Source of the DNA: a virus
Lineage: Duplodnaviria > Heunggongvirae > Uroviricota > Caudoviricetes
Strand: one strand, 5' to 3'
Length of the DNA stretch: 17,968 bases
Virus record (IMG/VR): IMGVR_UViG_2872185964_000004
The position numbers were made by a program, and so were the translations under genes. Shown here piece by piece: positions 1,462-17,968 of the stretch. Positions within the stretch are counted from its first letter, which is position 1. Each line of letters starts with the position of its first letter. The notes under the pieces are model-generated. The model was not told the origin of the DNA and ran no database searches. It saw only the letters and a list, made by a program, of their open reading frames with translations.

Positions 1462-1539
1462 ATATGTCCTTTTATCACCATATCAAGACAAACCATTGAT
1501 TTAATTAAATAATCTTCACTGCAAAAAGTGCCAAAAATC

Positions 1540-2035
1540 GCAAATTGACTACACCATTAACTACACCGTTCGGTGCACCGTATGAAACAACGTGGAACAA
1601 ATAGACACAAGAAATATACAGGCGGATCATCTTTCCAGGGGAAGCGCACCAATTCATGAGGGGCGTTAATGTCTATATGGGGATCCCCACCTACCGGAAT
1701 TTTTTTCCGGTTAAACGTTAATCAGGCTGGTGGGCTTTACCTGTTCGGTAGGTGTTATGATTATCGTAATACCTTTCCCCAATGGGGTAAAAGCATCAAC
1801 CGTAACGAAAGTCGTTATGGTTGCCACTGATACCCCAAATTTGGGTATCACGAGTAAGCCCCAAAATCTGGGTGTTACTCTTACTACCCAAACTACGGGT
1901 AGTTTCCGTAGTTTCATGGTCGAGTTGCAGATCTGCAACTCCCCCATTAACCACAGGCGAATTTCCGCCTTCGGTCATTCCTTAATCATCTGCGTAATCA
2001 TAATGATTATTCAGCAAGCGCAATTTTGCGCTTTG
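1540..2035. other. Palindrome-dense non-coding tract between phoQ and the packaging operon (candidate att/pac/ori or structured RNA region)
   Basis: Direct repeats ACTACACC (1548-1555, 1560-1567). Perfect or near-perfect dyads: CGGTGCACCG 1571-1580, TGGGGATCCCCA 1678-1689, CCGGAA-ttttt-TTCCGG 1694-1710, TAACGA-aag-TCGTTA 1803-1817, CCCAAATTTGGG 1834-1845, AAACTACGG-7nt-CCGTAGTTT 1890-1914, GAGTTGCAGATCTGCAACTC 1922-1941, AGGCG-6nt-CGCCT 1955-1970, TAATCAT-a-ATGATTA 1995-2009, AAGCGCAA-tt-TTGCGCTT 2016-2033. The ORFs in the track here overlap each other on both strands and look non-coding. Confidence 0.6.
1584..1613 (+). repeat. Three 10-bp-phased GAACAA-type repeats (site A); shares the 15-mer AACAACGTGGAACAA with site B
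   Basis: GAAACAAcgt / GGAACAAata / GACACAAgaa at an exact 10-bp period; 1586-1600 is identical to 9045-9059. Confidence 0.55.
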
Positions 2036-2195
2036 CTTAAAGTTCAGCGAGTTACCGCGCCGACTTCCTCAAATTGAGGTTTCCGAAAATATCAGCGGGT
2101 TAGCGATTAAGCTGACCATTAATTAAACTGCGAAAATGTCGTAGTTGTGAGGGGTGTAGCCAACCCATTTTTGGGCCGTCGGGAATATCAACCAG

Positions 2196-2477
2196 TTACC
2201 GCCGCAACCGCTCCGGCTTCTTCCAGTGGTACGTTATTTTCTCCTTCTCCCGATACATCTCCACGCGGCGACGGTAGGCCAGCAACTCAAGAACTCTGGT
2301 TCGTATGTTGCGCATATCCACGCCATTAAGTTCTATACCATCACGGCGCATCACCTCAGCAACAACACGCGCATAGTTTTCGGCTGTCACGCTGTCCGGC
2401 TGCGTGGCCTGTTCGTCAGCCTGCTGGCTGATTCCGGCAACGCGGCGGATTAATCCCGTTATTTCGGCTTCTGTCAT
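2196..2477 (-). CDS. Hypothetical protein (93 aa), last gene of the head/packaging operon
   Basis: ATG at 2477 preceded by TGAGGT Shine-Dalgarno; starts 11 nt after the TerL stop; no recognisable motifs. Confidence 0.5.
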   Translation of the reverse strand: MTEAEITGLIRRVAGISQQADEQATQPDSVTAENYARVVAEVMRRDGIELNGVDMRNIRTRVLELLAYRRRVEMYREKEKITYHWKKPERLRR

Positions 2478-2490
2478 GCTGCTGACCTCA

Positions 2491-16190: not shown

Positions 16191-16379
16191 TTAGTGAACT
16201 GCCTCGCAGCTGTCCTTCCATGCCAGAACTTCGGATAAAGACCAGCCAACGGAACGACCACCCAGCTTACGCCGTGATGGGAATTGTCCGGCTTTTTCCA
16301 GGCGGTACCGACATGAGCGGCTCAGGCCTGTAAGTTGCTGACATTCTTTTTCACGTATAAAGCGATCTGTGCTTAACAC
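16191..16379 (-). CDS. alpA: AlpA-family transcriptional regulator (MerR-like HTH; excision activator class)
   Basis: 62 aa; motif ...CQQLTGLSRSCRYRLEKAGQFPSRRKLGGRSVGWSLSEVLAW typical of AlpA; GTG start at 16379 with AAGGGGG Shine-Dalgarno. Confidence 0.85.
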   Translation of the reverse strand: MLSTDRFIREKECQQLTGLSRSCRYRLEKAGQFPSRRKLGGRSVGWSLSEVLAWKDSCEAVH

Positions 16380-16657
16380 AATTCCCCCTTTGTTGTTTCT
16401 TAAAGAGTCATTGGGTGGATTATTGGGTTGTGTCGGATTGTGTCAGGGTGTTTGTGGAATGGCAAACACTGGCGGCGGTCGTTTTACAGAAGCAGGGGAA
16501 TGAGAATAAAAACTCTTTTAATTCATTATGATGCAAAGGCATAAAATTTTACTTTTACGCCTTTTTTACATATTTTTAAGAGTGATTCGCCAGTGTATAA
16601 AAAAACAGCACACCTATAAAAATCAAATGGTTATTACGATGGCTGATTTTTAACCCG

Positions 16658-16717
16658 TTGTTCCATTTTGTTCCTTGTTGTTCGTCGTTGTGTCTCGTTG
16701 TTTCACGTTGTCCGCAT
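16658..16717 (+). repeat. Six tandem 10-bp-phased TTGTTC repeats (site C) immediately 3' of int and upstream of alpA
   Basis: TTGTTCcatt / TTGTTCcttg / TTGTTCgtcg / TTGTGTctcg / TTGTTTcacg / TTGTCCgcat; on the minus strand this includes ACAACGTGAAACAA, one mismatch from the site A/B 14-mer. Confidence 0.6.
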
Positions 16718-16738
16718 CCTGAAAAATCGCAAAAAAAA

Positions 16739-17968
16739 TTATATTTCTCTGGCTATTGGCAATGTGGTTACGTTTTCATGTGTTCCCGCCAGTATCCCTA
16801 ACCGCTCCGTCCACATATCCAGCGCGTCACGTTTCGCATCCAGATAACGGGAATGGTTATAGACTCGTTGCATCCCTGGCATCTGATGACCTGTAAGCTG
16901 CTCCACGACGTGAGGATCCACGCCTAAATCGTTCAGCATCGTTGTAAAGGTGCGCCGGATGTCATGCAGTGACCAGTGAGGGTGTTTTAGCCTCCTGTGC
17001 GCTAATCTGCCGTACTGCGACACGCTTGTTTCCTGTTTCACTTCCCCCAGCAATAAGCCCGTGTGCCTGTTCTGCTCCACCAGCTGCGTGACGAACGGCA
17101 GTATTGCTTCCGGTATGGGCCGGAATATTGCCACCTTCGTTTTGCTGTGTTCTTTCGGCACGGTCCAGAGCATTTCGGTAAAATCCCACTCGCTGATCTC
17201 CGATAACCTCAGTTCTACCGTCCGGCATCCGAAAACAATCAGGAGGCGGATTAGTGCGACGTAGTAAGGGGAAAATATTTTTTTGTCCAGTGCCTGCAAT
17301 AATTCGCCAAGTTCTTTGGTGCTTAAGACACGCTCGCTTATATCCGGTTTTTTCCCAACGTCCGCCACACTCATATCATCAAGAACGTTGCTGATTGCAT
17401 AGCGCCGCCTCCGGCAGAACTTAAGCGCCTGTTTGCACGTCTGTAGCAAGAATCCGGCAGTAACAGGCGTTCGCTTTGCCACCTGGTCAAAACAGGCCAG
17501 CCAGTGCCGTAGCTCGCATTTATCCAGCGGCATAGCACCAATGTGCTGTATTACGTGATTATTAAGGCGCTTTTTCAGGGCGGCATAATCCACGCGGTTT
17601 TCCTTTACGTAAGACTCAAGCCAGTAGGTAAGCGCATCGCCAACCGTTACGGGCTTTAACGCTTCCTGTACGGTGTAATTCATCTCATGACGTGGATTTT
17701 TCCCCTCAGCAAGCCAAGCGCGACACTGTGCCGCTTTTTCCCTGGCAGCTTTCAGACTCAGATCAGGATAATTTCCCAGCTTAATCCGTTCCGGTCGTGC
17801 TCCCCTTCCCGTTCCGGCCCTGTAGGTGAAATACCAGGTTAAAAGGCCGCTGGTTGAATGCCTGACGCTCAGGTTTCCACCGTCATTAAGAAAGGCTGTT
17901 TTTTGGGCGGGTGTGCCGTTGATTTTCCTTAGCTGTGTATCACTCAGTTTGTTAAGTGCTCTGCGCAT
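16739..17968 (-). CDS. int: Tyrosine site-specific integrase (P4-type)
   Basis: 409 aa; N-terminal arm-binding-like domain (LSDTQLRKI...GNYPDLSLKAAREKA), C-terminal catalytic region with R...HDIRRT...Y; the ATG is the final three bases of the window. Confidence 0.93.
   Translation of the reverse strand: MRRALNKLSDTQLRKINGTPAQKTAFLNDGGNLSVRHSTSGLLTWYFTYRAGTGRGARPERIKLGNYPDLSLKAAREKAAQCRAWLAEGKNPRHEMNYTVQEALKPVTVGDALTYWLESYVKENRVDYAALKKRLNNHVIQHIGAMPLDKCELRHWLACFDQVAKRTPVTAGFLLQTCKQALKFCRRRRYAISNVLDDMSVADVGKKPDISERVLSTKELGELLQALDKKIFSPYYVALIRLLIVFGCRTVELRLSEISEWDFTEMLWTVPKEHSKTKVAIFRPIPEAILPFVTQLVEQNRHTGLLLGEVKQETSVSQYGRLAHRRLKHPHWSLHDIRRTFTTMLNDLGVDPHVVEQLTGHQMPGMQRVYNHSRYLDAKRDALDMWTERLGILAGTHENVTTLPIAREI

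Follow-up and report, generated by a model that had tools for sequence, protein, structure and literature searches.

Phage-inducible chromosomal islands of the capsid-forming kind (cf-PICIs) have been described as a family since 2022 (Alqurainy et al., bioRxiv 10.1101/2022.09.08.507074). They were catalogued in approximately 13% of Enterobacteriaceae genomes in a published survey, and their size ranges from approximately 10 to 18 kb (He et al., bioRxiv 10.1101/2025.02.11.637232). The prototype, EcCIEDL933 of Escherichia coli O157:H7 strain EDL933, measures 15.4 to 15.5 kb and carries int, alpA, rep and the genes for capsid, protease, portal, connectors, HNH, TerS and TerL, with no tail genes; it is induced by helper phages HK106 and HK446, alpA being required, and its transfer needs every packaging gene and is cut severely upon loss of gene 1792 (10.1101/2022.09.08.507074; 10.1101/2025.02.11.637232). 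Its small capsids (T=4, 47.5 nm) are built of an island-encoded HK97-fold protein that undergoes proteolytic N-terminal trimming, and the helper supplies tails only (10.1101/2022.09.08.507074; 10.1101/2025.02.11.637232). Within the family, a gene of unassigned function downstream of alpA is variable, as is the region after the packaging operon, an accessory-gene slot in other cf-PICIs (He et al., bioRxiv 10.1101/2025.02.11.637232). The int-proximal module is, according to the literature, common to PICIs and cf-PICIs. Here, we analyzed a stretch of 17,968 nucleotides (the window; IMG/VR record IMGVR_UViG_2872185964_000004) that starts with phoQ. Its source record is CP026872.1, a 4,711,198-bp chromosome, and matching proteins carry the name Shigella dysenteriae. 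From the comparisons below, we put at roughly 0.9 the probability that the island beside phoQ is a cf-PICI in a Shigella dysenteriae chromosome, namely, an allele of EcCIEDL933 at its phoQ/roxA site.

The island beside phoQ is probably an allele of EcCIEDL933

EcCIEDL933 was located in the EDL933 chromosome as the only int-alpA-rep-capsid-to-TerL island in the region examined, between roxA and phoQ; it spans 15.45 kb between the same attachment (att) cores as the island in the window, which fits its published size. The two elements share the attB between phoQ and roxA and the gene order int-alpA-...-ssb-perC-capsid-protease-portal-closure-connector-hnh-1792-terS-terL, and positions 2184 to 9115 of the window, which contain the capsid-to-TerL block, were 96.7% identical to EDL933 at the DNA level. 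Because the packaging proteins are 95.5 to 100% identical to those of EcCIEDL933, membership in the family by mechanism may be inferred, in line with the original prediction, made from the letters of the window, of a cf-PICI-like, tail-less, capsid-encoding satellite. The elements differ in their replication genes: EDL933 has a 710-amino-acid (aa) DUF927 primase, whereas the window has a RepA/AAA_25 helicase with AAAGTGAGG iterons. Also different are the variable gene after alpA and the small genes that separate alpA from rep, and AlpA is just 91.9% identical. The island in the window additionally carries a tandem of the insertion sequence IS1 and is without the 225-nucleotide (nt) gene that lies, in EDL933, between perC and the capsid gene.

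In profile searches against Pfam and NCBIfam, each gene that the original prediction had named was supported: the P4-type integrase, AlpA, the RepA-like ATPase and the single-strand DNA-binding protein (SSB) all had matches, as did every member of the full head and packaging set (capsid, protease, portal, connector, head closure, HNH, TerS and TerL) (Table 1). The predicted lack of tail, lysis and CI-type repressor genes was likewise borne out, as none was found among the profile-searched genes of the island. An Rfam scan did not find a P4/P1-type immunity RNA (C4/CI), its sole match being SymR-like and sub-threshold (29.8 bits against a gathering score of 61).

The island was also compared with the published definition of cf-PICIs (methods of He et al.) and with the components forbidden by the SatelliteFinder model, and its sequence fits the family in every point. 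Its size between the att cores is 16.68 kb with the IS1 pair and approximately 15.16 kb without it, close to the 15 kb originally predicted for the element without IS1. An integrase of the P4 family (409 aa), a 10-bp direct repeat at both ends and an empty site in K-12 make up the integration module, and an AlpA of 62 aa (Pfam E=3e-18) makes up the regulation module. The replication module consists of the RepA AAA_25 helicase, SSB and adjoining iterons and is of a type different from the prototype primase. All eight genes of the packaging module are present in the published order, the split in the protease gene being attributed to assembly error. No tail, holin or lysis gene is present: the named genes are all non-tail, non-lysis or conserved hypothetical, and roxA lies directly outside. 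Classical PICIs are defined by use of the helper capsid, with portal, head-tail connector and adaptor forbidden, and here portal, connector and head-closure genes are present. As to an HK97-like prophage, no tail, lysis or immunity modules or remnants of these were found between position 1470 and the second att core.

The packaging module is common. The capsid-to-TerL block was found at a coverage of at least 80% in 404 of 5,426 complete Escherichia coli genomes, and the best match had an identity of 95 to 99% in 388 records. When the capsid protein was compared with a phage collection, phages of at least 37 kb reached only approximately 40% identity or less, and the matches of 58.6 to 65.7% identity included records of approximately 15 to 16.5 kb. 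This low identity to the larger phages agrees with the published distinctness of the family from phages. The element is not new, being an allele of the family prototype integrated where the prototype itself resides, and such a near-copy adds little to biology; the satellite class was recognizable to a reader working from sequence alone.

Boundaries of the island

Alignment of the K-12 empty site with the window and with island-bearing strains placed the insertion point at the stop codon of phoQ and defined the 10-bp att core, AAATATGTCC. In K-12, phoQ and roxA are only 75 bp apart. In the source record, a second AAATATGTCC core lies 172 to 181 bp beyond the window end, i.e., at positions 18140 to 18149, and is followed in CP026872.1 by roxA and then by pepT, potA and potB. 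Of the limits originally predicted, 1462 to 17968, the start therefore stands, as the att core overlaps the phoQ stop codon, and the end does not, as the island goes approximately 181 bp past the window. Just outside the window, we found not tail or lysis genes but the second att copy followed by roxA, and the capsid and terminase genes were full length rather than degenerate. Since the island ends approximately 180 bp past the window and roxA directly adjoins it, no tail genes belong to the island.

Tandem ATTAACTACACC repeats, a 12-mer, are present near the phoQ-side core, and two exact copies lie just upstream of int, beyond the window. Of the 19 loci compared, 16 carry the 12-mer at either end of the island, and the repeats are probable arm-type binding sites of the integrase.

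Comparison with other related elements

RepA-type alleles in E. coli (DETEC-S792, O157:H7 F6321 and O103/O111 strains) share the site and the RepA replication module with the island and match the whole window with 85 to 87% coverage and 96.8 to 97.8% identity. These alleles differ in that they have no IS1 pair, keep a 327-bp cassette that is absent here and are divergent in a region of approximately 600 bp (15069 to 15665). Classical Gram-negative PICIs of the EcCICFT073 type (loci L008, 10001 to 21230, and L010) use the same attB and have a 100% identical integrase, AlpA, DUF4222, SSB and the same int-proximal layout, but they are without portal, protease, connectors, HNH and TerL. Their cargo consists of a D5_N primase, SSB, a lambda-E-like capsid protein, a D-like decoration protein, a second AlpA-like gene and a Nu1-type TerS.

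With HK97 and HK97-like cos phages, such as helper HK106, the island has in common an HK97-fold capsid protein with a delta-domain cleavage motif, an S78 protease, an HK97 portal and HNH-dependent terminase packaging. These phages are approximately 40 kb, whereas the island is approximately 15 kb and is without tail, lysis and immunity genes; the HK97 capsid is T=7, whereas the published cf-PICI capsid is T=4. Satellite P4 resembles the island in its P4-family integrase, its AlpA/Vis-type regulator and its nature as a small, helper-dependent element. Unlike the island, P4 makes no capsid, portal or terminase of its own and uses Sid to remodel the capsids of P2.

Apparent frameshifts in repA and the protease gene

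Compared with near-identical assemblies, the window has ten single-base deletions (at positions 1637, 1776, 4589, 7514, 10519, 10550, 11666, 14115, 15740 and 16494), all of them in G/C homopolymer runs. The alignment of contig AAVFBE010000047.1 (GCA_014039615.1; L018) with the window, from position 12581 to position 129, spans 12,460 bp and is free of substitutions; each of its 7 gaps is a single base that the window lacks in a G/C run. A Logan assembly (L019) had the same gaps and one substitution, and two additional contigs (L011 and L013) revealed three more such sites on the int side. Both L018 and L019 have intact genes for RepA (466 aa) and for the protease (190 aa). The repA gene was 99.6% identical to that of DETEC-S792 with one gap, and an exact look-up of the 361-aa RepA fragment from the window gave no match.

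Because all differences are single-base deletions in G/C runs, with no insertions and 0 to 1 substitutions, they point to long-read consensus error and not to mutation. The frameshifts in repA and the protease gene are most likely assembly errors, and CP026872.1 appears to carry systematic homopolymer errors that make false pseudogenes. Our first reading, real decay of repA and the protease gene, had been based on truncated products elsewhere and was dropped, as comparison with four sister contigs (L018, L019, L011 and L013) revealed only single-base homopolymer deletions in the window and 0 to 1 substitutions. Gene decay in Shigella is, for this reason, not safely inferred from unpolished long-read records.

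A tandem IS1 pair and an absent cassette

IS1 copy 1 (12586 to 13329, 744 bp), in which the 24-bp inverted repeat on the right is missing, is joined straight to the left end of copy 2 (13330 to 14097), which is complete (768 bp). The copies lie head to tail and, with 90% identity between them, are different variants. The whole pair is surrounded by one 9-bp target duplication, GATATTCAG (12577 to 12585 and 14098 to 14106), and this single duplication around a 1,512-bp unit suggests that the pair transposed as a unit. The insertion splits a 73-aa gene into segments at 12514 to 12585 and 14098 to 14255 (tblastn) and lies upstream of DUF4222-repA-ssb in the opposite orientation. Short-read and draft contigs stop at both IS1 junctions. 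An 80-bp query spanning the IS1-IS1 junction gave, among E. coli genomes, two-piece matches spanning 112 bp only and not the same junction. The IS1 pair is a real lesion, and so is the absence of the 327-bp small-gene cassette (74-aa gene; locus L001, 14999 to 15325) at positions 9089 to 9115 of the window. In other E. coli alleles, the cassette is bordered by two copies of the terminator hairpin AAAAAGCCGGATTGCTCCGGCTGT, and its loss likely occurred via recombination between the hairpin copies.

Alternative explanations

Some points weigh against the island being a cf-PICI of the prototype's kind. The IS1 pair adds 1.5 kb upstream of repA (16.68 kb in total versus 15.45 kb in the prototype) and could block expression or strain the capacity of the capsid; if both frameshifts were real, the element would be unable to replicate or to mature its capsids; and both the position of cos and the arrangement of promoters are putative. 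In one alternative, the island would be no satellite but the degraded remains of an HK97-like prophage after loss of the tail, lysis and immunity genes. Its head and packaging genes are indeed of the HK97 type, and a separate lambdoid remnant with tail genes lies approximately 5 kb past the island. However, roxA, pepT, potA and potB stand between these tail genes and the island, and the tail genes are part of the other element, the architecture is compact with precise att borders, the packaging module recurs throughout E. coli (at the coverage and frequency given above), the capsid protein is at most 40% identical to that of any phage of at least 37 kb, and the whole is nearly identical to an element experimentally shown to be a satellite. 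We consider a prophage remnant very improbable, in agreement with the original statement that the element is not a degraded prophage. The original description of a self-contained mobile system goes too far for this copy, which carries the IS1 tandem in its early/replication operon.

The remaining alternatives accept the class of the element and concern its present state. IS elements and pseudogenes abound in Shigella genomes, and the island could be a dead cf-PICI copy, decaying through real frameshifts in repA and the prohead protease gene. Both genes are split in the window, and other assemblies, too, contain the same out-of-frame RepA N-fragment and a 152-aa protease fragment, but such recurring fragments can come from the same error-prone runs; given, moreover, that the differences are confined to G/C runs and that three of the ten deletions are in noncoding DNA upstream of alpA or in the origin, a dead copy seems improbable. 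A better case, although one that we regard as doubtful, can be made for a gene set that is intact in an element immobilized by the tandem IS1, either because the insertion is polar on DUF4222-repA-ssb or because the genome exceeds the limit of the T=4 head. IS1 insertions are classically polar; this pair is inside the early operon, upstream of repA and in the opposite orientation, three or more assemblies, with contigs that end at its junctions or slightly within them, apparently share the insertion, and the element is 8% longer than the prototype. Yet 16.7 kb may fit, as it is still inside the published 10 to 18 kb, internal promoters downstream of IS1 are possible, and the interrupted 73-aa gene is without a known role and has no detectable EcCIEDL933 homologue. 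Along these lines, the IS1 insertion may have fixed a mobile cf-PICI in the S. dysenteriae lineage with capsids still being made, or the 16.7-kb genome may still be packaged, a pair of outcomes that we think unlikely. If the former were true, the packaging operon, intact and possibly expressed via its own terminator-bearing leader, would belong to a satellite locked in place that still makes tail-less capsids; if the latter were true, an upper limit for the T=4 head would be set. Our preferred reading remains that of a cf-PICI allelic to EcCIEDL933.

Proposed life cycle

The steps by which such an island would spread are drawn here from the work on EcCIEDL933. A helper phage would turn on alpA, upon which the P4-type integrase would excise the island and the island's own RepA helicase and SSB would replicate it from the iteron origin. 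Its genes for capsid, protease, portal, connector and head closure would provide the proteins for building small T=4 capsids of the HK97 fold, and unit-length DNA would be packaged from a cos site upstream of terS by its own HNH, TerS and TerL. The tail-less heads would then exit the cell and take helper-phage tails.

With regard to capsid maturation, the SxGxxAD cleavage motif is kept in the capsid protein of the window as STGVPAD. The putative cos site was placed by means of LR881103.1, a related 16.5-kb element recorded as packaged linear DNA, whose sequence begins 22 bp ahead of terS and stops just past the homologue of the small open reading frame (ORF); these packaged ends put cos, likely, in the 121-bp gap at 4493 to 4613. 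LR881103.1 (vB_KppS-Ant), deposited as a phage and cf-PICI-like, has a 765-aa gene annotated as tape measure (locus L020, 2036 to 4333) in the accessory slot after terL, an annotation that sits oddly with a family whose definition excludes tail genes. The label gene 1792 for the 60-aa ORF was deduced from the capsid gene being 1786 and from the text of the prototype paper.

As to replication, the iterons of the original prediction proved real: six of the seven AAAGTGAGG matches in the window (at most 1 mismatch) are clustered at 10388 to 10575, directly after the repA stop, where chance would give 3.7 matches over the whole window and approximately 0.04 per 190-bp stretch. The cluster is the probable origin of replication.

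Other features of the window

The leader between perC and the capsid gene has a terminator hairpin right after perC (9093 to 9110), a terminator-like hairpin (8837 to 8866) that ends 7 nt before the capsid ATG and three GTTGTTC repeats. The block TTTTGTAAATTATTTGT of this leader stays unchanged even in a relative whose capsid identity is 65%, and the packaging operon may be controlled at this point. The GTTGTTC repeats upstream of the capsid gene (9044 to 9060) are in the opposite orientation to the AACAAC array between int and alpA, and similar GAAACA repeats lie by the int-side att, beyond 17968. The arrays are candidate binding sites for AlpA or another regulator; the count of the 7-mer over the whole window is by itself not significant.

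Once the error at 15740 is corrected, a single ORF of 439 aa runs from just after alpA to the C terminus of the Icd-like gene (14820 to 16138, minus strand; sister contig L011, 7008 to 8327). Its N-terminal 100 aa are identical across islands, its middle is divergent and overlaps the opposite-strand YlcI/YnfO gene, which scores above the NCBIfam cutoff, and no domain matches were found for it. The ORF was considered as a possible single gene. The YlcI/YnfO-like gene (plus strand) and the Icd-like gene (minus strand) were absent from the gene list of the original prediction. The sub-threshold Rfam match, to SymR antisense antitoxin RNA, is at 15027 to 15099 (plus strand), antisense to the Icd-like start, and may well be due to chance. 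In the variable segment after the packaging operon, the ORFs had no Pfam match.

Table 1. Features of the window, with the evidence on which each is based
Feature	Position	Strand	Evidence or remark
phoQ, 486 aa, intact, chromosomal flank	1-1461	+	Pfam PhoQ_Sensor/HisKA/HATPase_c; 99.86% nucleotide identity to K-12
phoQ-side att core AAATATGTCC, overlapping phoQ stop codon	1460-1469		K-12 empty-site alignment; source-record junctions
Tandem ATTAACTACACC repeats, 12-mer	1544-1567	+	Tandem repeat finder
Variable noncoding segment after packaging operon	1826-2193		No F6321 match; fragmentary EDL933 matches only
Conserved hypothetical after terL, 93 aa	2196-2477	-	phrog_1561 E=2.9e-56; 87% identical to EDL933 and F6321 homologues
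Large terminase TerL, 553 aa	2491-4152	-	Pfam TerL_ATPase and TerL_nuclease; 98.4% identical to EcCIEDL933
Small terminase TerS, P27 family, 118 aa	4136-4492	-	Pfam Terminase_4, TIGR01558; 99.2% identical to EcCIEDL933
Intergenic region upstream of terS, likely cos (inferred), 121 bp	4493-4613	-	LR881103.1 ends; assembly error at 4589
60-aa ORF, homologue of EcCIEDL933 gene 1792	4614-4796	-	100% identical to EDL933 ORF; phrog_3173
HNH endonuclease, 146 aa, packaging cofactor	4780-5220	-	Pfam HNH; 98.6% identical to EcCIEDL933
gp6-like head-tail connector/adaptor, 98 aa	5220-5516	-	Pfam Phage_connect_1; 98.0% identical to EcCIEDL933
Head completion/closure protein, 112 aa	5513-5851	-	Pfam Phage_HCP; 95.5% identical to EcCIEDL933
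HK97-family portal, 403 aa	5848-7059	-	Pfam Phage_portal E=9e-91, TIGR01537; 99.5% identical to EcCIEDL933
HK97-family prohead protease, split by 1-nt deletion at ~7514 (G run)	7061-7632	-	Pfam Peptidase_S78; 190 aa intact in sister assemblies
HK97-fold major capsid protein, 385 aa	7672-8829	-	Pfam Phage_capsid, TIGR01554; 98.7% identical to EcCIEDL933 gene 1786
Structured leader between perC and capsid gene	8830-9116	-	Terminator scan; fold z-score -5.56; alignment
PerC-family regulator, 90 aa	9117-9389	-	Pfam PerC E=3e-43
SSB, 136 aa	9402-9812	-	Pfam SSB; 98.5% identical to EcCIEDL933
Two small conserved hypothetical genes	9822-10112, 10125-10376	-	phrog_27268, phrog_1231; F6321 homologues
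Iteron cluster, AAAGTGAGG-type repeats, both orientations	10386-10577		Repeat finder and pattern matches; assembly errors at 10519, 10550
RepA-family helicase/ATPase, split by 1-nt homopolymer deletion at ~11666	10575-11974	-	Pfam AAA_25 E=1.6e-43; 466 aa intact in sister assemblies
DUF4222 gene	11971-12270	-	Pfam DUF4222
Hypothetical gene, 77 aa	12276-12509	-	phrog_2196 for 11971-12509 region
Tandem IS1 pair, 1,512 bp	12586-14097	+	Pfam IS1 domains; junction analysis
Early-operon small genes, 121 aa and 74 aa	14248-14613, 14606-14830	-	tblastn against F6321; PHROGs
Icd-like gene, possibly reaching 15110	14820-15026	-	NCBIfam phage_ICD_like; PHROGs
YlcI/YnfO-family small gene, divergent from island operon	15226-15423	+	NCBIfam NF041551, 59 bits versus cutoff 30
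Variable gene downstream of alpA, weak Bro-N/Ant-like N terminus, 143 aa	15707-16138	-	Shortened by homopolymer error at 15740
AlpA regulator, 62 aa	16191-16379	-	Pfam Phage_AlpA E=3e-18; 91.9% identical to EcCIEDL933
10-bp-phased AACAAC repeat array between int and alpA	16657-16715	-	Tandem repeat finder; sequence reading
P4-family tyrosine integrase, 409 aa	16739-17968	-	Pfam Arm-DNA-bind_3 and Phage_integrase; 97.8% identical to EcCIEDL933

Beside potB, approximately 5 to 10 kb past the right end of the window, lies a lambdoid prophage remnant (locus L007, 45 to 4749) that is cut by an IS3-family element and encodes a tail terminator U, a major tail protein, a tail assembly chaperone and a truncated tape measure protein. 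This remnant is an element separate from the island, and at the same place O157 strains carry a prophage with espK.

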